Source: Gemmatimonadaceae bacterium
GTDB lineage: Bacteria; Gemmatimonadota; Gemmatimonadetes; Gemmatimonadales; Gemmatimonadaceae
Assembly (NCBI GenBank): GCA_052389995.1
Contig: JBQTHJ010000040.1
Span: 9,491 to 73,490 of the forward strand
Direction: 5' to 3'
Length of the DNA stretch: 64,000 nucleotides
Shown one piece after another: positions 26,560-39,735 of this stretch (positions are counted from its first letter, which is position 1; the number at the start of each line of letters is the position of its first letter). Both the position numbers and the translations under genes were made by a program. The notes under the pieces are model-generated. The model was not told the DNA's origin and searched no databases. It saw only the letters and a list, made by a program, of their open reading frames with translations.

Positions 26560-26579
26560 GAGTGGCAGGAGGAGCGACC

Positions 26580-26939
26580 ATGGCCACAGCCGCCGCCAGC
26601 GTATCAGCCGACCTTCGGGTCCTCGATCGAGCCCACGACCGCCTCCAGCTCAGCTGGGCGGACATCGGCGCCATCATCGGCGTCGACGAGAGCACCGTCC
26701 ACCGCTGGAGGAGCCGCACGTCGACGCCGCGCCCCATGGTGCGCACCCGCGTTGCCCAGCTCCACGAGACGCTCGACCTCTTGAAGCGCGTCTTTGCGGG
26801 TCCCGATCTCGCCCGCCAGTGGCTCACCGAGAAAAAGCCGAAGGGCCTCGGTGGCAGCGAGACGCCGCTCGACGTCATGCGCGCGGGTCGGATCGACCGC
26901 GTCCTGATGCTCCTGCACTACCTCGCACGCGGAGCCTGA
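26580..26939 (+). CDS. Xre/MbcA/ParS-type antitoxin (DUF2384 C-terminal domain)
   Basis: HTH-like LSWADIGAIIGVDESTVHRWR. C-terminal A..WL..P...LGG.TPLDVM..G....V motif (ARQWLTEKKPKGLGGSETPLDVMRAGRIDRVLMLL). Immediately precedes a RES gene. Confidence 0.85.
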   Translation: MATAAASVSADLRVLDRAHDRLQLSWADIGAIIGVDESTVHRWRSRTSTPRPMVRTRVAQLHETLDLLKRVFAGPDLARQWLTEKKPKGLGGSETPLDVMRAGRIDRVLMLLHYLARGA

Positions 26940-26997
26940 AATCCCGGGAGCAAGCGACGGGCTGACCTGGATCGGTTCGCCGGTCGAGGTCTTTCGC

Positions 26998-27525
26998 GTG
27001 GTGCACAGCGTCCACGTCGACGAGGCCAGACACGACTTTCTCGGGTACCTCCGGCAAACGCTCTCGGGCAGCCAACGCCAGGGCGGGCGGTTCAACCCTC
27101 CCGGGGAATTCGGCGCGCTCTACACCAGTGCCGATGAGGAGACGGCGTGGTTCGAGGTGGCGGCGCGCTTCCAGCGCGAGGGAATCGACGGGCTCCCGCC
27201 CGACATGGGTGTGCTGCGTCTGGTGGTCTCCGCCGGCCGTTATGCCGACGTCACCACCGAGGACGGATGCGCGGTGTGGGACATCTCGCCCGCGGCGGTC
27301 GCGGACCCGGAGCCCGACAAACGCGACATCGAAGCGTGCTGGGAGCTCGCACGCGCCATACGCGCCGTCGCCGACGCCATTCTCGCGCCTTCGGCGCGCG
27401 CAGAAGGCGTGAACATGCCGCTCTTTCCCGATCGTGAGGAGGGCGAGCTCGCGCTCGAGCTGCAAGCGGTGAGCGATCGCGCGGTTCCCGACCGGTTCCT
27501 CCAGCGCGCGAACGAGTCCTGGTGA
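26998..27525 (+). CDS. RES-domain toxin (MbcT/ParT-like NAD+-targeting family)
   Basis: GGRFNPPGEFGALYTSADEETAWFEV carries the R..E..S signature. Start uncertain: the frame is open upstream to about 26941, but no ATG/GTG lies there. Confidence 0.85.
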   Translation: MVHSVHVDEARHDFLGYLRQTLSGSQRQGGRFNPPGEFGALYTSADEETAWFEVAARFQREGIDGLPPDMGVLRLVVSAGRYADVTTEDGCAVWDISPAAVADPEPDKRDIEACWELARAIRAVADAILAPSARAEGVNMPLFPDREEGELALELQAVSDRAVPDRFLQRANESW

Positions 27526-30455: not shown

Positions 30456-31386
30456 ATGTCCGTCGGAGCGCTCTCCGCGCGCATCAACCTGGAGCAGTCC
30501 AGGAAGCAGGCGAAGGACCTCGTAAAAGCGTTCAAGGCGGGCGATGGTGAGGTCCTCGACCGCATTCGGTGGAGTCACCCGCGCTTTCGCGGGCTCACCG
30601 ACGCGCAAATCCGGAAACAAAGGTTCGTGCTGGCCGACGCGCAGCTCGTGGTCGCGCGCATGCACTACTTCGAGAGCTGGCCGAAGCTCGCGCGGCACAT
30701 CGAGTCCCTCGAGGCTGAGGACCCGCGCGTAATCCGCTTCGACGGCGCTCAATCTGACGGCCACGAGCACGCCGCCGCGGCTTGCAGGCGTGCAGATTCC
30801 GCTTCTGGATCTCCTGCTCGAGCGCGGTGCCGCCATCGACGGCGTGAGAGCGGGAGACAGCACGGTGAGGGCAGCGCTCGCGAACAACTGTCCCGAGGCG
30901 GCGGTAGCGCTCGTTGAGCGCGGGGCCAGAGTGCCAGACGTCATCGTCGCGGCAGGTGTGGGCCGGCTCGAGCTCGTCAGGCAGTTGGCTGGCAACGCCA
31001 CCAAGGAGCAGCTGGAGCACGCGTTGATCATGGCAGCGCGCTACGGCCGGCCCGACGTCGTCGAGCACCTCCTCGAGCGGAACGTCGACGTTGCCGCATC
31101 AGATGGGATGACCGCGCTACACTGGGCGGCCGGTGGTGGTCATCTCGAGATGGTAAAGCTGCTGATCCAGGGTGGCGCGCCACTCGAGGTGAAGAACGTG
31201 TACGGCGGAACAGCGTTGGACAGCACGCTCTGGTTTGCCTATAACGTTCGCCCCGAGGAGTTCACGCGGAACGATTATCCTGCGGTCATCGATTTTTTGA
31301 TCACTGCCGGAGCCCGTGCTGATCTCTATCCCGAGATGAGTACGTACATCAGCGAGGTGTACCGACGCGCGGGCAGATCGGCTTGA
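30456..31386 (+). pseudogene. Ankyrin-repeat protein, reading frame broken once (frameshift near 30733..30790)
   Basis: The ATG at 30456 follows GAAAGGAGG. The N-terminal module (LEQSRKQAKDLVKAFKAGD...LADAQLVVARMHYFESWPKLARHIE) runs in frame 0 and decays into Arg/Ala junk. Ankyrin repeats (LLDLLLERGAAID, TALHWAAGGGHLEMVKLLIQGGAPLE) continue in frame +1, which is open from 30733. Confidence 0.7.
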
Positions 31387-31572
31387 GCGCTCGTCGGACC
31401 GTTGACCCTCACGGCCGAGTTCACCGACCTCGGCGGCGGGCGTACGAAGATCGTGTCGACGTCGCTGTTCCACACCGCAGAGGAGCGTGACGGGATGCTC
31501 CAGTCGGGAATGGAGGAGGGGCTCAATCAGAGCTACGAGGCGCTCGATCGGCTACTGTCGACGCTGAGCTGA
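31387..31572 (+). pseudogene. C-terminal remnant of an SRPBCC/AHSA1-family gene (no start, about 60 codons)
   Basis: Directly after the ankyrin stop, in the same frame: LTLTAEFTDLGGGRTKIVSTSLFHTAEERDGMLQSGMEEGLNQSYEALDRLLSTLS*. This is the typical C-terminal third of Activator-of-Hsp90-ATPase-like SRPBCC proteins. The N-terminal two-thirds is absent. Confidence 0.55.
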
Positions 31573-31641
31573 CGACACGCCGGTGGAATCGAGGGGAGGC
31601 CACACATTCCGTGTCGGCCTCCCCTCGATTTCATTAGGCGT

Positions 31642-32385
31642 ATGAAAGTCGCGACCTGGAACGTCAACGGCATTCGTGCGCGGGCGACGCAGCTGCGCGA
31701 GTGGCTGGAGCGCGAGCAGCCGGACGTCCTGTGCCTCCAGGAGCTCAAGGCGGAGGCACCTCAAATCCCGGAGCAGTGCAAGTCGGCGGACTATCACGCC
31801 TACTGGCACTGTCTGAAGGCGTACTCAGGCGTCTCGCTGATGCTGCGCAAAGGCGTGTTCAGCGCGGAACCCAGCTACAGTCATCCGCCCTTCGACTATG
31901 AATCACGGATCGTGCAGGTGGAGCAGGGCGATCTGGTGTTGGCGTCCGTATACGTGCCGAATGGAGGGAAAGACTACCCGGCGAAGCTCAACTTTCTGTC
32001 GCGCATGATCGAGTGGATCCGACAGGTGCACGCCGATGGGCGCTCGTTGATTCTCTGCGGCGACATCAACATCGCGCGGACGGAGATGGACGTCCATCTG
32101 AAGGAGCGGAAGCCGAACGTGGTCGGGCAGTTGCCGGAGGAGCGCGCACTATTCCAGAGCATGCTCGACGCCGGCCTCGTCGATGTCGGGCGGACGCTCG
32201 ATCCCAATAACGAAGGTCTGTTCACGTGGTGGGCGCCATGGCGAAGCATGCGCCAGCGCAACATTGGGTGGCGCCTCGACTACGTGCTCGCTGCTACCAC
32301 AATTGCGGGGCAGGCGACGAGCTGTGTGGTGCAGACCGACGTCGGCACGAGCGATCACGCGCCGGTCGTGATGACGACCGCCTGA
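31642..32385 (+). CDS. xthA: Exodeoxyribonuclease III
   Basis: MKVATWNVNGIRAR...PDVLCLQELK, CGDINIA and SDHAPV match the EEP-fold AP endonuclease motifs. 247 aa. Confidence 0.92.
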   Translation: MKVATWNVNGIRARATQLREWLEREQPDVLCLQELKAEAPQIPEQCKSADYHAYWHCLKAYSGVSLMLRKGVFSAEPSYSHPPFDYESRIVQVEQGDLVLASVYVPNGGKDYPAKLNFLSRMIEWIRQVHADGRSLILCGDINIARTEMDVHLKERKPNVVGQLPEERALFQSMLDAGLVDVGRTLDPNNEGLFTWWAPWRSMRQRNIGWRLDYVLAATTIAGQATSCVVQTDVGTSDHAPVVMTTA

Positions 32386-32396
32386 GCAAGCTGCCG

Positions 32397-33782
32397 TCAG
32401 CGTTGACGAAAGCGCTCCGGCGTTGACGTGTCCATGGCGAGATCGAGCTCGAGCCGAGTGGCGCCGTCGTCCGCAACGGCGCCCAGCGTGAATGCGCCGT
32501 AACTGATCAGCTCGATCGTGGCCGTACCATTCGCATCGACGGCCTCGGAGATGACATCCGGCCGAAACGTAGGGTGCAGGTGGAACGTCACCGTGCCCTT
32601 TAAGGGATGCTCGGGATCCGTAGACCTGACCGACACCGTGACCGCGAACCAGTCCGGATCACCTGCTATCTCGCTCACTACCGGAGTCACGCGCCGTCGA
32701 TTTCGCTCCGGAACCCCACCGAACTGACCCTTGTGAGGATCCTCGGGACACGGGAGTGGCTCGATGACTGGCAACGCGGGCTCCGCGGTGTGAGCGGACG
32801 GGGGTGCGTCCCTGACTTTCCGCGCGGGCTGCGTCGCTTCGGCCGTGGCAGTCGCGAACTCCTCCTCTGGCACGTTCCGTCCCGAGCGTCGCAGCAGCTC
32901 GTTCATGAGTAGTCGAAGCCGTTCGTGCTTGTTCGTCTTATCGTAGAAGATCGCCTCGATCCCGAATTTCGTTCGGAGGCGACGGCGGTCGACCTCACGC
33001 TCCTCGCCGGCATGCATGCCGATGAACGCGAAGTGCCGCGGTGACTGAAAGCCTAACGCGCCGGTCACCTGCCGCAGAATCGCCATCAAGTCGGGATCGG
33101 AGAGCGAGAATCCGAAGATCACGATGCGCTGCATCGCGAAAATGGCGAAGAGCTTTCGAACCGCGGCGTCGGAGCGAAGATACCGCTTCGCATAGTCGCG
33201 GTCGGTGAGCACGATCGAGGGCGGATCACTGATGCATCCGTGCAGGTAGATCAGATACCGCTCCGGCTCGTGCTCGAGAAAGCTGAACATCAACCGGAGC
33301 ACCGCCTCGTCGTCGGCCCAGTTCACGCACTTGGGTGCTGGAAGACCCAGGCGGTGGTGCGTTATCTCGAGCGCCTCGTCGTAGTTGGTGGTCAGGATGT
33401 GGCGGAATGGGAGCCGGACGAGCGCATCGAGAACGGGATCTGTTCCCGGAGCCGCGCCGAATGCCTCGGTGAGCATCGCGAAGTATTCCGTTTCGCCCAG
33501 GCGGTCACGGTATTCCTCTCCCCGCCAGAGAACGTCGTCGAACCGCTTGAGATTGGACGGCAGATGCTGCGTCGTGCCTTTGTGTGTCGAGTCGACCTTC
33601 TCGCGTACGCGTGACAAGCGCTGTTCCATCGCTTCCAGCAGGCTATCCCAGCCCGGATAGCCGACGCGGGCACTGAACCCGGCGCCGACGAGCGCCACGG
33701 CCTTTCCGCCGGCGACGCAGGTTGCGAGATGGCTGAACGCCTCGACGTCGCGCTCGTTGACGAGCAGGTCGGCAAGAACCAT
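32397..33782 (-). CDS. SIR2-like (SIR2_2 family) NADase-type domain fused to a C-terminal pYEATS-like domain
   Basis: The ATG at 33782 overlaps the upstream stop (TGATG). VALVGAGFS, ILTTNYDEALE and YLHGCISDP are SIR2_2 hallmarks, followed by FGFSLSDPDL. The last roughly 115 aa (DPHKGQFGG...VTFHLHPTF...GAFTLGAV...RLELDL) match my memory of the prokaryotic YEATS domain. Confidence 0.85.
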   Translation of the reverse strand: MVLADLLVNERDVEAFSHLATCVAGGKAVALVGAGFSARVGYPGWDSLLEAMEQRLSRVREKVDSTHKGTTQHLPSNLKRFDDVLWRGEEYRDRLGETEYFAMLTEAFGAAPGTDPVLDALVRLPFRHILTTNYDEALEITHHRLGLPAPKCVNWADDEAVLRLMFSFLEHEPERYLIYLHGCISDPPSIVLTDRDYAKRYLRSDAAVRKLFAIFAMQRIVIFGFSLSDPDLMAILRQVTGALGFQSPRHFAFIGMHAGEEREVDRRRLRTKFGIEAIFYDKTNKHERLRLLMNELLRRSGRNVPEEEFATATAEATQPARKVRDAPPSAHTAEPALPVIEPLPCPEDPHKGQFGGVPERNRRRVTPVVSEIAGDPDWFAVTVSVRSTDPEHPLKGTVTFHLHPTFRPDVISEAVDANGTATIELISYGAFTLGAVADDGATRLELDLAMDTSTPERFRQR

Positions 33783-34900
33783 CAGCGGAGCGCCTCGCAC
33801 AGCCGGTCCATCGCCCCCATCACTCGCCGCGTCAGGCTCGGAGTGCGGCGGGGCCCGGCCACAGGGGCCACGTTGGGCGGGAGCCCGAACTCGTCGGACC
33901 GGATCGCATCGAACACGAGTCCCACGTGGACGTAACGTGTGTCGTCCAGGAAGCCGAGGTTGTAGTAATCCATGCCCTGGTAATAGCGAACGAACAGTCC
34001 CCAACCGCCGAGGCGCTGCAATGTCTGCGAGAGATCGGCGGTGAAGGTCCACGGTGAGAGGTGTGGAGCTACCGTACGGAGGTACTCCACCTGCCCGCCG
34101 ACCGACATGCGGCCGTTGAGCCAACTCGTGCGAAACGATCTCCAGGAAGCATCCGCCCCGGAGAAGATGCGCATCGTCGGGTACAGGGCCTTCTGTTCGT
34201 TGGGGATCGTTCCGGGGCCGAACGGCTGCGGATTGCCCTCGACACCTAACGTGAACGTGCACATCTGATTGGCGCGGAGCTGCTGGTCCGGGTCGAGGTC
34301 GTCGAGGCGCATGTGGCGATACGAGGTCCAGACGCGGAAGTAGTTCGTCGAGAAGGTGCCATTGATCTTGTTCGTGGTGCGACGCGTCCCCGGCGGCAGC
34401 ACGCCGTCCGAGCAATTCCCCTCGGCGTCCATCGTTTGATCTGTGTAGAGACACCCCTCCTGACCGTTCGAATGGTGCCCCCACGGAATGACGTTCAGCG
34501 CCGCGACGCGAATGGGGCTATCGAGCCGGAGCGAGGGGTCGACCAGGCTCGCCCAGAAAAGCTGGAGGTTGAACTTCGGCATGAACGACGGTGTCCGCAC
34601 CGGATTCGACCGGGTGCTGAACATCCGCAGCCTGACCATCGGCGTGAACGAGAATGACCACGACCGCGCGGCGAAGTCCGGCCCCTCGTAGATCTCGCCC
34701 GCATTCTGATACAGCCCCTGCCGGAAGAAAAGATGCGGCGCGAGATGGGCCTCGAAGAGCAAGTCGTCGGAGGGGAAGCGATGGAAGATGTAGGAGCGCT
34801 CGAGGAAAACCGGCGAATTGCGGTTGTCGACATCCTGCGCGGCGGCGATGGCGGCCGAGGCGAGCGCGGCGGCGAGTGCGATGGGGAAGCGCAGCATCAT
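33782..34900 (-). CDS. Secreted outer-membrane phospholipase A1 (OMPLA/PldA)-like beta-barrel protein
   Basis: ATGATG at 34900 with GGAGG upstream. Signal peptide MMLRFPIALAAALASAAIAAAQD. WGHHSNGQEG resembles the OMPLA H-x-S-N-G catalytic motif. A downstream STNYFRV Asn candidate is present. Alternating beta-strand pattern with an aromatic-rich C-terminus. Confidence 0.7.
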   Translation of the reverse strand: MMLRFPIALAAALASAAIAAAQDVDNRNSPVFLERSYIFHRFPSDDLLFEAHLAPHLFFRQGLYQNAGEIYEGPDFAARSWSFSFTPMVRLRMFSTRSNPVRTPSFMPKFNLQLFWASLVDPSLRLDSPIRVAALNVIPWGHHSNGQEGCLYTDQTMDAEGNCSDGVLPPGTRRTTNKINGTFSTNYFRVWTSYRHMRLDDLDPDQQLRANQMCTFTLGVEGNPQPFGPGTIPNEQKALYPTMRIFSGADASWRSFRTSWLNGRMSVGGQVEYLRTVAPHLSPWTFTADLSQTLQRLGGWGLFVRYYQGMDYYNLGFLDDTRYVHVGLVFDAIRSDEFGLPPNVAPVAGPRRTPSLTRRVMGAMDRLCEALR

Positions 34901-35205
34901 CCGCCTCCGGGGGTTACCGCCACCACGTTTGGGACGGGTGCAGCGGGACGAAATGCCCCGTAGATCGGATCGCTCTCGGAGTGCAACGAGAAGACGTAGA
35001 ACATCCGCCCTGCATACTGCGCCGCGACGAGCTGCAAGCGGTCGTTGATCTCCACGAACTGTTTCTGAGAAATCTTGCTGGCGCGAAGCGTCTGATTCGT
35101 CAGCGTCTCGAGCTTCTGCGCCGGAAAGCAGTCCGCGATCGCGATCAGGATGCTCGGCAGCGCCGGATCGTTGGTCGCGACGTCCCACGAGAGAAGTGCG
35201 CGCAT
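34897..35205 (-). CDS. Orphan 102-aa protein, no recognisable domain
   Basis: The ATG at 35205 lies 5 nt after the MBL stop, and its own stop overlaps the next start (ATGA). No TM or signal peptide. Sequence MRALLSWDVATNDPALPSILIAIADCFPAQKLETL... Confidence 0.6.
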   Translation of the reverse strand: MRALLSWDVATNDPALPSILIAIADCFPAQKLETLTNQTLRASKISQKQFVEINDRLQLVAAQYAGRMFYVFSLHSESDPIYGAFRPAAPVPNVVAVTPGGG

Positions 35206-35210
35206 GTCCG

Positions 35211-36374
35211 CTAGTCCGTGAGCGGGTCGCCGAGATCCACGCGCAACGACCGCGCATTGTCGGCGCGATAGACCGGCCGCACCTTCCGCCCCGCTTGCTG
35301 CTCGCTGCGCAGTACCGCATCGACCTTGGGCAGCTTGTTCGTCATGTACACGCTGTAGGGTTTGTCGTCGTCGGCGCGTGCCTCGCACAGCATCGTGAGC
35401 GTCGGGACGTCGGGATTCCCATGCTCGCCGTTCGCGGAGATGACGTAGTGATCGGCGGTGATGATGCGGAAGAATTCCGTCGACACGTTTCGGTCGCTGC
35501 CGTGGTGGGGCACCTTGAGGATGTCGACGTGCAGCCGCTCGCCCTTGAGCACCTTCGTTCGCCGGACTGCTTTCAGGATGTCGTCGCCGCGGGCGTCACC
35601 CGTCAGTAGCATCGTTCGACCGTCAGCCTCGGCCACCACGACGATGCTCGACAGGTTGTAGACGGAATCATCGAGAAACGCCGCCGCGAGCTGCTGCAAC
35701 TCCGCTCCCTTCGGCTTCTTTTTCTTCTTGAGCGTCGCCTTCCAGTCCGCCTCGAGCTTGTCCAGCCGCTCCTCGTTCGGACCGAGGATGGTGAAGGTCA
35801 GTCCGTCGCCGAGCTTGACGGTCTTCTTTCCTTTGGCCGGTGAGGAGACCAGGCCCTTGAATGGGCGATTGACATCGAGGTCGAGTCTCGCACTGTTGTC
35901 GCGAAGCCTCCGGCCCTGCGGGACGCTCGCCGCCAGCGCCGCGGTAGGCTCATCGAGGCCTAACGCGGATACGCCTCCGTCGGCACTCGCCGCCGCCGTT
36001 GCCACCGCGTCGAACGCGGCGCCCTGGGCCTTCGCCTTCCTCATGATGTCGTCGAAGCTGTTGTGCCAGAGCGTATCGATGTCGAAGGGCATCTCCTCGC
36101 CATCTTCCTCGAGCTCGAGCAGGTAGTCGGTGAGGCCGAGGATGCCGTTGATGTGGTCGTCATCGATGTGGCTGACCATCACCATGCGGATCGCGAGCGG
36201 ATCCTCCGGGGAGCGTTTCGCTTTCAGCTGCTCGAGCCGCGGTCGGAGGCTGTTCGCCCAGACCTTCGCCGGGCCGCCATCGATGACGATGAGACGCGGA
36301 TCGTCCGGCTTGCCGTAGTGGAGGAGCAGAGAGTCGCCGTGTCGCGCTTCCAATGCTTCGAGTGTGAAGAGCAT
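35211..36374 (-). CDS. ComEC/Rec2-type metallo-beta-lactamase-fold hydrolase (putative nuclease)
   Basis: Start at the internal ATG 36374 (MLFTLEALEARHGDSLLLHYG). IVIDGG. Metal motif VSHIDDDHINGI (HxDxDH variant). LKVPHHGSDRN and VISANGEHGNPD as in the ComEC MBL domain. Lys-run LKKKKKPKG. Confidence 0.85.
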   Translation of the reverse strand: MLFTLEALEARHGDSLLLHYGKPDDPRLIVIDGGPAKVWANSLRPRLEQLKAKRSPEDPLAIRMVMVSHIDDDHINGILGLTDYLLELEEDGEEMPFDIDTLWHNSFDDIMRKAKAQGAAFDAVATAAASADGGVSALGLDEPTAALAASVPQGRRLRDNSARLDLDVNRPFKGLVSSPAKGKKTVKLGDGLTFTILGPNEERLDKLEADWKATLKKKKKPKGAELQQLAAAFLDDSVYNLSSIVVVAEADGRTMLLTGDARGDDILKAVRRTKVLKGERLHVDILKVPHHGSDRNVSTEFFRIITADHYVISANGEHGNPDVPTLTMLCEARADDDKPYSVYMTNKLPKVDAVLRSEQQAGRKVRPVYRADNARSLRVDLGDPLTD

Positions 36375-36427: not shown

Positions 36428-38482
36428 TTACACCGATTGTAGCGCGCGCAGGATGTCGACCATGCCGTAGCCTTGAAAGTCGCGCTCGCGGCCGAGGTCC
36501 GTCGCGGACGTGCAGAGGATTTCCTTGATGCGTCGCGGATTGCCGAGGAGCTCGCGGTGGCGCGCGAGCAGGAGCGCGACGGCGCCGCTCACGTGTGGCG
36601 CGGCCATGCTGGTACCGTCCTTCGTCTTCGATCCATTTCCAGGGATCGGCCCCAGGATCTTCTCGCCGGGTGCAACGAGGTCTGGCTTTCGGCGGCCGTC
36701 GCCCGTGGGGCCCCGGCTCGAGAAGTAGCTCACGCCGTACGTGTGGGGCTGATACCGGTGCGTCGCACCAACCGTGATGACGTTCTCGGCGTTCCCCGGA
36801 TCCTGGATGCTGATGGCCGCGTAGCCTTCCGCCGCGCCGCCGGCGGGAGTGGCGTAGTAGATGTACCCCTTGTTGCCTGCGGCAGCGACGACGACGACCC
36901 CCGTGCCGATGACGCGCTCCGATTCGTCGCACACCGGCGTTCGGCCGCACGCGTAGTTCGCTTTGTCGTGCGGGATCGCGAGGCTCATGTTGACGCCATG
37001 AATCAACGGCTGCTCGCGGTGCGCGTTGAGGTGTCGGATGAACTGGAGCGCCGCCATGATCGTGAACTCGTTCCCGCGGCCTTCGTCGTCGAGCACGCGA
37101 AGGTCGTAGAGATTGATGTCGGGACAGACGCCGACGAGGTCGTGCTCGCCGGGATGATGCCGGTCTCCCGGCTCCCAGTCGAACATGCGCCAGTCGGCGG
37201 CGAGGATGCCCGCGACATGCGTCCCGTGCTCGTGCCGTGGCGATTCGTACTCGGCCACCGCATGGGGGATCTCGATGAATGGCTTGATGGCGTCCCAGTC
37301 GATCGAGCGACCCGTCCGAAGGCTCCTGCGGAGTTGCCTGCCCTGGCGGCGCACGTTCGGGTCGGCCGATCTGAATTTCGCCCAGAAGGCGAGATCGCGC
37401 TGCCACCGCGCTGCACGCGGGTCGCTAGGCTTCGCCGTGAGGTCGGCCTTGAGCTTCCTGATGACGAGGCGAAGCTCGTCGTTGTCGGTGTTCAGGAGCT
37501 GACGGATTCGCGTGAAGTCGTAGGTCGCCCGGACCCGCGTGTGCGCGGGCCACTCGGCGTCCGCCTCTTGCGCCGTCAGCTTACGCCCGGCCGCACCGTC
37601 GGTCTTGAGGCGCGGCTTTTCTCGGTCGTCGCGCTTCCAGAATGCGGGGTGGCGCGCGTCGATCCCGCTGTCGAGGATCGCCCAGGAAATGTTGGAACAA
37701 TCGAGCTTGAACACGCGCTGGGCCGCGTCGGATTTGACAGCGAGCGTCGACCGCCAGACCGCGGTGGTTGCCGCCCGGTCGTGACTCACCAGCCACACGC
37801 GGGCCTTCTCGTCCCGGAGCGGCTCGTGCATCAGCGTCGCGAACGCCGCGACGAGCGCCTCCTCGTCGTCATTGAGCTTGTCGAAGGCTTGTTTCGCGAG
37901 CGGTTCCGTGGCCGGCTCCTTCACCTCGCCGGCGAGCAGGATCGTCCCGACGAGGTGAATCATCCAGAGGAGATCCGCTGACACCGGCGGCGTCTCGGGA
38001 CGTACGACCTGCCCCTTCTGCGCGGCTTCGATCGACGTCGCCAACTCTCGCTGCACTTCCGGGCGCGTGAAGGCGCGGGGCAGGTCGGCCGCTGGCTCGT
38101 ACCGAACGTGGTCGTGCCACCACTTGCTCATCGGCAGCACCACGCGAACGAGCTCGTCGAAGTGAAGGCGCGCGGCGACCGCCGCCTGATTGTAGGCGAT
38201 GTCGGCGGCGACGCTCCCATTCGGATGCCGCTGCTTCCACGGGATCGTCTTCCGCTCGGCGTTGAGTCTGAGCCGAAGCGCCATGCCCAGCTCAGCCGGC
38301 GTGTAACCGCGATGCGGCGTGAGGAGTAGATCGCGCGGCTCATCCGGACCGCGGTCGGGATCCGTGTACTGGAGCCCGAACTCGATCCACACGTCCGGAA
38401 GTACGGGCGAGTCCTGGGTGAACCGGCGAGCTGCGTCCTTTCCGAAGATCAGCTCCTCGAGCCACGGTCGCCGGAGTCTCAT
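36428..38482 (-). CDS. Cytoplasmic S8 (subtilisin-family) serine peptidase with novel N-terminal region
   Basis: Catalytic D in WAILDSGID, H in HEHGTHVAGI, S in DGTSMAAPHVSGAVALL. No signal peptide. About 250 aa N-terminal region without a recognisable domain. By my count about 150 residues separate D and H. The start overlaps the patatin stop (ATGA). Confidence 0.9.
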   Translation of the reverse strand: MRLRRPWLEELIFGKDAARRFTQDSPVLPDVWIEFGLQYTDPDRGPDEPRDLLLTPHRGYTPAELGMALRLRLNAERKTIPWKQRHPNGSVAADIAYNQAAVAARLHFDELVRVVLPMSKWWHDHVRYEPAADLPRAFTRPEVQRELATSIEAAQKGQVVRPETPPVSADLLWMIHLVGTILLAGEVKEPATEPLAKQAFDKLNDDEEALVAAFATLMHEPLRDEKARVWLVSHDRAATTAVWRSTLAVKSDAAQRVFKLDCSNISWAILDSGIDARHPAFWKRDDREKPRLKTDGAAGRKLTAQEADAEWPAHTRVRATYDFTRIRQLLNTDNDELRLVIRKLKADLTAKPSDPRAARWQRDLAFWAKFRSADPNVRRQGRQLRRSLRTGRSIDWDAIKPFIEIPHAVAEYESPRHEHGTHVAGILAADWRMFDWEPGDRHHPGEHDLVGVCPDINLYDLRVLDDEGRGNEFTIMAALQFIRHLNAHREQPLIHGVNMSLAIPHDKANYACGRTPVCDESERVIGTGVVVVAAAGNKGYIYYATPAGGAAEGYAAISIQDPGNAENVITVGATHRYQPHTYGVSYFSSRGPTGDGRRKPDLVAPGEKILGPIPGNGSKTKDGTSMAAPHVSGAVALLLARHRELLGNPRRIKEILCTSATDLGRERDFQGYGMVDILRALQSV

Positions 38483-39735
38483 AGCCGGATCTTCCGTTTG
38501 TTGCTGTCCTTGAGCGCGTCCCTGACCTTTTTCTCATCCAACCAGTCAGGGTGGGGAGGCCGCAGCTCGGGCGCCGGTACTGGCATCAGGGGACTCACGT
38601 GTCGCCGGACGGCGACGTCGGCGAGGAAGTACCCGTGGTTCTCGAGGACGGCGCGCTCTCCGTCGGAGAAGGTGTCGAGATCGGTGCGAATGTTGGCGAT
38701 CAGGTCTCGCGCGACTTCCTTGGAGTATCCCTGCGAGTCGTTCGGGATGTAGCGCGATCGTGCGCTGCTCACGGCCCAGTACGTTCCATCCATCACGGGC
38801 CGCGACGTCGCCGGATCCGTGGTCGAGAAGCTCGCAATGAGCCATCGCCGCCGCAGGGCGCGCGCCTGATTCTGCACGATGTCGGCGTACCGGAAGATCC
38901 GCGACTTGAGTCCGCGATCGGGAGTAAACTCGAAGGGGCCGCCGCCGTCCGAGACGAGAACGATCTCGTGACGCTTCCACACCGGCTCGAGGCCCATGTT
39001 GTCGTAGTTCCCGCCGTCGGTGAGGCGGAGGCCGGCGACACACTTCTTGCGCAGATCGCGATCGGTGCACTTGCCGTTCTTGAAGTCGCGCTCGTGGAAC
39101 TTCGTGCGCAGCGGGTTGAAGAGCGGCGGAAAGCACGCAGACGCCGCGGCGGCGCGGCCGGCGGGGTAATCGTCAGGCGGCGGTGCCTGGTAGCCCACCT
39201 GGTAGTCGCCCATCCGCTGACGCTCGAAGACCCAGTTGACGCCGAAGGCCATGTCGGTCGCGCAGAAGACGAAGTTGGGCGCGGCCGGCAGCTCGGGGAG
39301 CGTGAGCTTCGACGTGCTCTTCTCGAGCAGGGTCGCCATGTGGTCGACGATCTCGCGACCACGGAGGATGTTCAGCGGGTTGATGCGGCGGCGGAGAAGC
39401 TTTCCGCGAAAGTTGCTCGCCGTTAGGTCGTCGGTGGGCTTGGCGACCTGTGCATCGAAGTCGGGGAATGGCCGAGTGAGCGAGCCGCCAAGCTTTCGAA
39501 TCGCATCGGCGAGTACGAGCGCCATGAGGCTTCCGCCGGAGACGGAGCTGATCGTCCGCACGCGATGCAGGACGCCGAGCTCGTTGAGCCGCCGGAGGGC
39601 ACCGAGGTGGAAGAGTGTGGCGCGGAACCCGCCGCCGGAGAGACAGAGGCCGATGCCCTGTCGACGACGTTCGGGAAGGTACGAGTCGGACTCGGCGGCC
39701 TCCGCAGCAGCGGCCGGCGTCAGTGCGGTCGACAT
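38479..39735 (-). CDS. Patatin-like phospholipase
   Basis: Oxyanion hole LSGGGFRA, nucleophile elbow SVSGGS, catalytic Asp in LTDGGNYDN. 418 aa, no signal peptide. Confidence 0.9.
   Translation of the reverse strand: MSTALTPAAAAEAAESDSYLPERRRQGIGLCLSGGGFRATLFHLGALRRLNELGVLHRVRTISSVSGGSLMALVLADAIRKLGGSLTRPFPDFDAQVAKPTDDLTASNFRGKLLRRRINPLNILRGREIVDHMATLLEKSTSKLTLPELPAAPNFVFCATDMAFGVNWVFERQRMGDYQVGYQAPPPDDYPAGRAAAASACFPPLFNPLRTKFHERDFKNGKCTDRDLRKKCVAGLRLTDGGNYDNMGLEPVWKRHEIVLVSDGGGPFEFTPDRGLKSRIFRYADIVQNQARALRRRWLIASFSTTDPATSRPVMDGTYWAVSSARSRYIPNDSQGYSKEVARDLIANIRTDLDTFSDGERAVLENHGYFLADVAVRRHVSPLMPVPAPELRPPHPDWLDEKKVRDALKDSNKRKIRL

Follow-up and report, generated by a model that had tools for sequence, protein, structure and literature searches.

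Is a bacterial protein that joins a SIR2-type domain to a prokaryotic YEATS (pYEATS) module a self-contained defence enzyme, and what would switch it on? The question is raised by a gene on the minus strand of a 64,000-nucleotide stretch of DNA from a Gemmatimonadaceae bacterium (assembly GCA_052389995.1, contig JBQTHJ010000040.1, positions 9,491 to 73,490 of the forward strand), here called the window, from whose first letter all coordinates are counted. We read the product of this gene as a single-polypeptide, trigger-gated NAD+ depletion effector of the defence-sirtuin kind, and would put the probability of that reading at roughly 0.5; its activity, its ligand, its activation by oligomerisation and its anti-phage role are what we infer, whereas the domain architecture, the presence of the catalytic residues, the modelled fold, the conserved cage and the spread of the module over many immune-type effectors are what the analysis shows.

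The gene and its SIR2 domain

As delimited by Pfam and by an AlphaFold2 (AF2) model, scored by the predicted local distance difference test (pLDDT), the 461-residue product consists, in order, of a SIR2_2 domain, a Pro/Ala-rich linker and a pYEATS module. Both Pfam matches lie far beyond chance when set against the gathering cutoffs. The gene and the parts of its first half, which resembles NAD+-hydrolysing enzymes (NADases), are as follows.

32397..33782, minus strand: complete SIR2_2-linker-pYEATS gene, 461 codons plus stop (domain searches; identical NCBI protein)
32883..33725, minus strand: SIR2_2 NADase-type domain, residues ~20-300 (Pfam, PDB profile, Foldseek, AF2 pLDDT mostly >90)
33672..33686, minus strand: GAGFS NAD-binding loop, G33-S37 (alignment to ThsA)
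33384..33386, minus strand: codon of N133, counterpart of the catalytic N112 of ThsA (TTNYD aligned to ThsA TTNYD)
33240..33242, minus strand: codon of H181, counterpart of the catalytic H152 of ThsA (LHG aligned to ThsA MHG)

Mechanically, the reading frame stays open up to 34484. We placed the start at ATG 33782 because homologues begin there (M1 is nearly invariant) and because this codon overlaps the stop of the upstream gene in the string TGATG. At NCBI the identical protein is entered, on a 108-kb contig, as 'MAG: SIR2 family protein [Gemmatimonadaceae bacterium]', where MAG stands for metagenome-assembled genome.

The Pfam model SIR2_2 (PF13289) matched residues 128-277 along nearly its whole length (model positions 2-140 of 141) with a score of 80.4 bits, the cutoff being 24.5, and an E value of 1.7e-22. 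An alignment of 30 homologous sequences, A1, was the basis both for our statements of invariance in this half and for a profile search of the PDB. Nine positions, G33, G35, S37, T131, T132, N133, H181, G182 and D229, are identical in 30 of 30 homologues. The profile matched ThsA (6LHX) at E 2e-28 and laid TTNYD on ThsA T110-D114, where the N112A variant in the PDB reads TTAYD. The full-length AF2 model has a mean pLDDT of 89.1, and Foldseek returned ThsA, DSR2 and KomC, all of them NADases, as the nearest structures (E 1e-15 to 1e-12, with ThsA and DSR2 at 1e-15). The best PADLOC matches were to ThsA, PDC-S25, LmuA (Sir2 type) and Dsr1, each limited to the SIR2 core.

A first-pass annotation of this DNA had called the domain SIR2_2-type from the strings VALVGAGFS, TTNYDEALE, IYLHGCISDP and FGFSLSDPDL, followed by a Pro/Ala linker. 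All of these are present in the translation, and the call is confirmed by the Pfam profile and by ThsA, DSR2 and KomC as best structural matches. Its further claim, that the catalytic Asn and His of ThsA-type NADases are present, held when the alignment was run, with N133 and H181 falling on N112 and H152.

Sirtuins are classically lysine deacylases, and the gene could be read in that light: the SIR2 half would be an NAD-dependent protein deacylase or an ADP-ribosyltransferase, and the YEATS half would deliver its acyl-lysine substrate, in a regulatory or housekeeping role. A sirtuin deacylase and an acyl-lysine-reading YEATS domain (PMC4573853) would form a chemically coherent pair, and many of the loci that carry the gene sit among ordinary metabolic genes. 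However, the domain is SIR2_2, and canonical sirtuin structures were matched only over residues ~15-48, the start of the Rossmann fold, with E values no better than 0.006. Only four cysteines occur in the protein (22, 152, 183 and 345), none of them in a CxxC pair, and it therefore lacks the zinc-binding Cys4 module of sirtuins. Because sirtuins match at the start alone, the zinc module is absent and the nearest structures are all NADases, the SIR2 domain is, by its sequence, of the NADase class and not of the deacylase class, and NAD+ hydrolysis is its predicted activity. In addition, the same C-terminal module occurs on TIR, caspase, CHAT and STAND proteins, where the logic of a reader joined to an eraser fails, and the distribution of the gene is patchy, with plasmid-borne copies in some hosts and close relatives that differ in having it. 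We regard a deacylase or transferase role as very unlikely.

Among known systems, ThsA of type I Thoeris (SIR2 plus SLOG/STALD; PDB 6LHX and 8BTO) is the best match of the N-terminal domain in both sequence and structure, at the profile E value given above and a Foldseek E of 1e-15. The two proteins share the GAGxS, TTNYD and HG motifs as well as the layout of an N-terminal SIR2 effector followed by a C-terminal regulatory domain. They differ in what that second domain is: SLOG in ThsA, pYEATS in the window protein, where Pfam detects no STALD/SLOG. Identity is only ~20%, and the PADLOC models of ThsA match the window protein by its SIR2 part only (profile positions 80-231 of 478). DSR2 is described, in two reports on it (PMC11087589, PMC10981675), as a SIR2 NADase activated by a phage tail tube protein that is bound by its C-terminal region. 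DSR1 and DSR2 are resembled in the layout of a SIR2 NADase and a C-terminal sensor on one polypeptide, and the structural match of the SIR2 domain is strong; they differ in exceeding 1000 residues and in having helical sensor regions, against 461 residues here. The scores for the NCBIfam equivalogs Dsr1 and Dsr2, 21.4 and 18.9 bits, fall far short of the cutoffs of 1400.

The pYEATS module and its putative acyl-lysine cage

The second half of the protein comprises the following features.

32748..32870, minus strand: Pro/Ala-rich linker, residues 305-345 (AF2 pLDDT and homologue alignment)
32400..32747, minus strand: pYEATS module, residues 346-461, modelled as an immunoglobulin-like (Ig-like) beta-sandwich (PF20305, AF2, Foldseek and PDB profile matches)
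32715..32741, minus strand: N-terminal signature of the module, D-P-x-K-G-x-[WF]-G-G, residues 348-356 (405 module instances)
32565..32582, minus strand: HLHPTF, residues 401-406, identical to Taf14 H57-F62 (HMMER alignments to Taf14, YEATS2 and AF9; hhalign to AF9)
32490..32501, minus strand: YGAF, residues 428-431, with Y428-G429 at the positions of Taf14 W81-G82, the second wall of the aromatic sandwich (HMMER and hhalign alignments)

The linker is predicted to be disordered (AF2 pLDDT <50 at residues 317-340); its length varies between homologues, and the region does not align in A1. Beyond it, the Pfam model pYEATS (PF20305) matched residues 379-448 at E 2.1e-12, covering model positions 1-72 of 73; the score was 47.2 bits, where the cutoff is 26.9, and the isolated C-terminus scored 50.3 bits (E 2e-13). 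Modelled alone, residues 335-461 gave a pLDDT of 92.7 and a predicted template modelling score of 0.85 for a beta-sandwich of seven strands and a short C-terminal helix. The top PDB match of this model in Foldseek was the YEATS domain of Taf14 in complex with H3K9ac (5D7E; probability 1.00, 96 columns); the YEATS domain of GAS41 was also among the matches, and other Ig-like folds scored close behind. A profile of the pYEATS module alone, A3, was searched against PDB sequences. Of its 23 matches 22 were YEATS proteins, led by YEATS2 (E 0.028) and followed by Taf14, AF9 and Yaf9. Each of these matches is weak (E 0.03-1.4), and their weight lies in their unanimity.

The first-pass annotation had recognised the pYEATS pattern in a C-terminal string, DPHKGQFGG...DWFAV...TVTFHLHPTF...YGAFTLGAV...RLELDL, which the translation contains. 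The profile search bore the assignment out, with PF20305 above threshold and the cage motifs retained, and comparison of the predicted structure with YEATS folds yielded a confident beta-sandwich whose top PDB match is the Taf14 domain, though at E 3e-3.

The module starts ~30 residues ahead of the PF20305 model, and its opening signature, at residues 348-356, lies outside that model. Across the 405 non-identical module instances over which motif and cage conservation were computed, the signature is conserved at 99% (D), 90% (K), 98% (W/F) and 98% and 87% (the two G). Stand-alone pYEATS proteins of 116 residues start exactly at DPxKGxWGG.

The case for a retained reader pocket is made at the level of residues. 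In the YEATS domain of Taf14, F62 and W81 sandwich the acetyl-lysine, T61 forms a hydrogen bond to its epsilon nitrogen, the W81 and G82 backbone holds the acetyl carbonyl, and H59 contacts the peptide (PMC4573853). By alignment, H403, T405 and F406 of the window protein fall on H59, T61 and F62, which belong to the cage and the peptide contact. The conservation of the corresponding positions in the family is listed below.

H403: 97%
T or S at 405: 98%
F406: 90%
Y, W or F at 428: 94%
G429: 74% (E in 23%)
F431: 94%

Because the cage positions are conserved at 74-98% in the 405 instances, we argue that the pocket is under selection, and judged by these residues it looks intact and conserved family-wide. 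The eukaryotic YEATS domains of Taf14, AF9, YEATS2 and Yaf9 have an Ig-like fold, which the module appears to have too, and share with it the aligned motifs FHLHPTF, [YW]G.F and (L/F)D(L/Y)DL, and the conserved cage. They differ in being readers of histone acetyl- and crotonyl-lysine, whereas the module of the window is bacterial and has no chromatin context.

Proposed mechanism

According to our reading, the SIR2_2 domain would be the effector, hydrolysing NAD+ as ThsA and DSR2 do, and pYEATS would be the sensor, its cage of H403, T405, F406, Y428 and G429 binding an acyl-amide group. Candidate ligands would be acyl-lysine residues of phage or host proteins, or chemically equivalent small molecules. 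Ligand binding would either lift autoinhibition or cause the SIR2 domains to oligomerise, across the flexible linker, and the ensuing depletion of NAD+ would arrest the growth of the infected cell. Ligand- or modification-gated NAD+ depletion, as the first-pass annotation had suggested, would fit the conserved cage.

How widespread are the architecture and the module?

More than 100 clusters at 90% identity have the SIR2_2 plus pYEATS architecture, from Gemmatimonadota, Acidobacteriota, Myxococcota, Longimicrobium and Alphaproteobacteria, and some of these clusters carry the JGI name 'SIR2-like protein/pYEATS domain-containing protein involved in immunity'. Three plasmids, rhizobial and Methylorubrum, carry the full-length protein. 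The module itself is far more numerous, with 2,295 representatives at 50% identity (1,907 of them at E <= 1e-10); stand-alone copies are labelled 'pYEATS domain-containing protein' in RefSeq. In 115 sampled representatives its partners were SIR2_2, TIR, SLOG, CHAT, caspase, nSTAND1, ParA-like NTPases, LRR and GDSL lipase, and the module lies C-terminal to the SIR2, TIR, SLOG, CHAT, caspase, nSTAND1, LRR and GDSL domains. The TIR-, SLOG-, CHAT/caspase-, nSTAND1-TM- and GDSL-pYEATS proteins share with the window protein this C-terminal module, its DPxKGxWGG start and the cage motifs, and differ in the effector domain. SIR2 is one of several effectors (9 of 83 sampled mid-length module representatives). 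The eukaryotic YEATS model PF03366 reached E < 1e-3 in 8 of 115 other pYEATS proteins. A tblastn search of 50,697 phage records with the module gave no match, and a search of a viral fold library returned generic Ig-like matches only.

The conflict-system supplementary tables of Kaur et al. 2021 list 'nSTAND1+TM+prokYEATS' and 'GDSL+YEATS', and the 'prokYEATS' label in that supplement agrees with the origin in conflict-system comparative genomics that the first-pass annotation had given. Our literature search on pYEATS or prokaryotic YEATS together with SIR2, TIR, Thoeris or phage defence found no paper describing the domain, that label being the sole trace. The architecture is catalogued and named in public annotation, and the protein therefore joins a known, uncharacterised kind; experimentally this kind is untouched.

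The breadth of these combinations invites another view of the module, as a docking or self-association domain that brings the fused effector to a separate sensor or scaffold, its conserved surface being the interface. It would agree with the presence of the module in many unrelated effector and NTPase architectures, with the tandem copies, two or three of which are frequent among the 115 sampled representatives and found in long proteins, with the existence of stand-alone module proteins of 116-125 residues, and with the co-occurrence of the module with SLOG domains, themselves ligand sensors. An adaptor does not, however, account well for the pattern of conservation, since the best conserved positions are those of the YEATS cage, and two of these, a Thr/Ser and a Gly, would be of no evident use in a flat interface. 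Nor do most SIR2-pYEATS loci offer a candidate partner bearing a second pYEATS; in each locus we found one module only. On balance we think it rather unlikely that pYEATS is an adaptor of this kind.

A broader version of the sensor reading can also be formulated, in which pYEATS would be a working reader of acyl-lysine or acyl-amide groups and a bacteria-wide switch that turns on SIR2, TIR, caspase/CHAT and STAND immune effectors in response to an acyl mark made or induced by phage, with S8 or CHAT proteases processing the junction between reader and effector in some lineages. We hold this proposal to be possible but doubtful.

Gene neighbourhood in the window

SIR2-pYEATS is the last gene of a co-directional run on the minus strand that starts with a patatin gene, in a window with a G+C content of 64-69%. 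A scan for promoters and terminators at 31.5-40.5 kb found nothing exceeding shuffled expectation.

38479..39735, minus strand: patatin-like phospholipase (Patatin, E 8.7e-17; its stop overlaps the S8 start, ATGA)
36428..38482, minus strand: S8 subtilase of 684 residues (Peptidase_S8, 3e-40; PADLOC 'subtilase', 1.3e-42)
35211..36374, minus strand: MBL-fold hydrolase, partner of the S8 subtilase (PADLOC LmuA, 3.8e-57, and Avs1a, 1.2e-37; NCBIfam Avs1a, 162.8 bits against a cutoff of 420)
34897..35205, minus strand: conserved open reading frame of 102 residues (homologues upstream of the 372-residue gene in loci L165 and L164)
33782..34900, minus strand: 372-residue protein that seems to begin with a signal peptide (stop overlapping the start of SIR2-pYEATS)
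30790..32385, plus strand: ankyrin-repeat protein (198 residues) and ExoIII-like endonuclease/phosphatase (Pfam)

The C-terminal ~165 residues of the patatin have no domain match, and the order patatin-S8-MBL recurs in the metagenome locus L092. The S8 subtilase has no obvious N-terminal stretch resembling a signal peptide, as judged by eye. For the conserved pair formed by the 102-residue frame and the 372-residue protein, Pfam, PADLOC, NCBIfam and PDB returned no match. This pair follows a patatin gene in L165 and has S8, caspase and lipase genes close by in L164, and the 372-residue gene is present in a relative without SIR2-pYEATS. A motif-based guess that the 372-residue protein is an outer-membrane phospholipase A was withdrawn; sequence searches of Pfam, PADLOC, NCBIfam and PDB gave no support, and its homologues are without a Pfam domain. 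On the other side, the ExoIII-like gene converges on the SIR2-pYEATS stop with a gap of 11 nucleotides and is syntenic in L001 and L002.

Some ~5 kb from the SIR2 gene, at 26562..27525 on the plus strand, a RES-domain toxin (E 1e-19) follows an antitoxin of the Xre/MbcA/ParS type. MbcT-type toxins of the RES family are NAD+-degrading enzymes, and the RES module may be a second NAD+-targeting module near the SIR2 gene.

The neighbours show partial likeness to two further defence systems. As in AVAST type 1, to which only the S8-MBL pair is compared, an Avs1a-related MBL hydrolase is paired with a serine protease; here, however, Avs1a stays under its cutoff, the S8 subtilase has no match to the Avs1b model, and the cluster has no STAND NTPase. 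The LmuA-Sir2 and LmuA-hydrolase models of Lamassu match the SIR2 and MBL proteins, respectively, the MBL protein staying under the cutoff of the Lamassu hydrolase model as well, and PADLOC found no match to the SMC-type partners LmuB and LmuC in the six neighbours scanned. No ThsB/TIR gene of Thoeris was found by Pfam among the genes scanned at 30.8-40.8 kb (those for patatin, S8, MBL, the 102-residue frame, the 372-residue protein, the ExoIII-like protein, the ankyrin-repeat protein and a pirin).

A close relative has the patatin, 102-residue and 372-residue genes in this order and neither S8-MBL nor SIR2-pYEATS. To us the locus looks like a mosaic whose cassettes can be separated, and the gene may, but need not, be tied functionally to those that carry a protease.

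Neighbours across lineages

Our survey took in 21 genome loci that have the complete architecture, along with two plasmids and four additional contexts, together ~23 lineages. In 14 of these lineages SIR2-pYEATS has no recurrent partner gene. In 9 (~40%) a protease adjoins it, together with hydrolase or lipase cassettes, the group of the window being one of the nine. L003 and L004 have S8-MBL-SIR2pYEATS tightly packed, with gaps of 3-40 nucleotides; L005 has a GDSL lipase, SIR2-pYEATS, an astacin-like peptidase and S8; in L016 an alpha/beta-hydrolase-S8 fusion protein lies 10 nucleotides upstream of SIR2-pYEATS; and in L017 S8, then an alpha/beta hydrolase, stand beside it. In Bosea (L020) and Rhizobium (L022 and an R. 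leguminosarum plasmid) a 1040-residue alpha/beta-hydrolase-CHAT protein is encoded directly upstream, and on the M. extorquens plasmid pCMU01 an unrelated S8+MBL pair lies beside SIR2-pYEATS in convergent orientation.

Some details of these loci deserve mention in their own right. In the 1040-residue protein (L020 6823-9942, L022 6834-9959, L167 3798-6884) an LCAT/PGAP1-like alpha/beta hydrolase is joined to a Peptidase_M17_N-like region and to a CHAT protease. The pCMU01 island (L166; M. extorquens CM4, NC_011758.1 284037-299245) holds SIR2-pYEATS, a 1319-residue SIR2 protein, an IS5 transposase, S8 (1032 residues)+MBL and a DUF2235 protein; M. extorquens CM4 is a cultured, genetically tractable host of SIR2-pYEATS. 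In a Steroidobacter metagenome-assembled genome (L018 6650-9781, minus strand) a protein with Metallophos, STAND (AAA_16/NACHT-like) and TPR regions is encoded divergently beside SIR2-pYEATS.

The recurrence of proteases could indicate a multi-gene unit with SIR2-pYEATS as its terminal effector. Bacterial gasdermins are activated by proteases encoded next to them; by analogy, a cytoplasmic protease from the neighbourhood (S8 in the window, CHAT in other lineages) would cut the exposed Pro/Ala linker or the conserved DPxKGxWGG junction and free SIR2 from an inhibitory pYEATS, with the lipase and MBL proteins as parallel effectors. Besides the nine lineages, such coupling is favoured by the disorder of the linker, by the exchange of both protease and lipase for non-homologous versions across lineages, and by the direct fusion of CHAT, caspase and GDSL domains to pYEATS elsewhere. 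Among 55 SIR2 loci without pYEATS these proteases occurred in none, in a control set drawn largely from one phylum, which limits the force of this contrast. Set against protease coupling are the 14 lineages without a nearby protease, the two unrelated genes that separate MBL from SIR2-pYEATS in the window, and the convergent genes of the M. extorquens plasmid. Moreover, because the stand-alone modules of 116 residues start with it, DPxKGxWGG is part of the domain and not a dedicated cleavage site.

The S8 cassette also has a life of its own. The S8 subfamily of the window adjoins SIR2-pYEATS in L003, L004, L005, L016 and L017 and occurs alone in L084-L112. In the flanks of 29 of 29 metagenome loci of this subfamily we found no SIR2 or pYEATS, and the S8 cassettes are therefore autonomous there, which again counts against coupling. 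Those 29 loci carry S8-MBL, S8-alpha/beta-hydrolase or S8-Metallophos; the partner is MBL in L084-L092, an alpha/beta hydrolase in L093-L112 and a Metallophos protein in L096. The S8 and MBL pair looks like an uncharacterised module of a protease and a swappable hydrolase. S8-MBL as an obligate partner of SIR2-pYEATS was rejected on the same 29 loci. We judge activation by a neighbouring protease to be an unlikely explanation of the gene.

A 'writer' for the putative reader was considered as well. A GNAT acyltransferase gene stands ahead of one homologue; the pairing is absent from every other locus, and the candidate was rejected.

Weighing the sensor-effector reading

For a trigger-gated NAD+ depletion effector we count the NADase-type effector, the YEATS-like sensor, the modularity, the autonomy in 14 of ~23 lineages, the plasmid copies, the mosaic setting and DSR2 as a precedent. 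The reading should nevertheless be taken with some caution, since several results weigh against it. No single measure gives more than a weak likeness to eukaryotic YEATS: the eukaryotic model PF03366 scores the module at 12.9 bits, under its cutoff of 22; the Foldseek score to Taf14 is weak (TM 0.50/0.46 at the E value given above); and hhalign of the module with AF9, over a span that opens at the DW strand and closes with the last strand, (L/F)D(L/Y)DL, is weak too (E 3.5e-4, 37% probability), the numbering of the AF9 sequence used being consistent with published residue numbers. The DPxKGx[WF]GG extension, motif and strand, has no eukaryotic counterpart in the YEATS alignments. Conservation of the cage residues does not by itself specify a ligand. 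None of the PADLOC and NCBIfam defence models spans the whole protein, and the literature searched yielded no enzymatic or phage data on any SIR2-pYEATS protein. Finally, a protease and hydrolase cassette accompanies the gene in ~40% of lineages, and the gene may therefore not always act alone.

Significance

At present, what stands is the confirmed annotation of an architecture that is catalogued though unstudied. To it our analysis adds a residue-level case for a retained acyl-lysine cage, a conserved N-terminal motif of the module beyond the Pfam model, and a recurrent, non-obligatory neighbourhood of protease and hydrolase cassettes. As a single-gene protein of 461 residues with clear catalytic and cage residues, it lends itself to experiments on behalf of ~2,300 related module families. 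Among the known triggers of such NADases, signalling nucleotides act on ThsA, and structural proteins of phages on DSR2. If the cage binds an acyl mark, covalent modification would be a new kind of trigger for NAD+-depleting defence enzymes, and a eukaryotic chromatin-reader fold would be tied to prokaryotic immunity.

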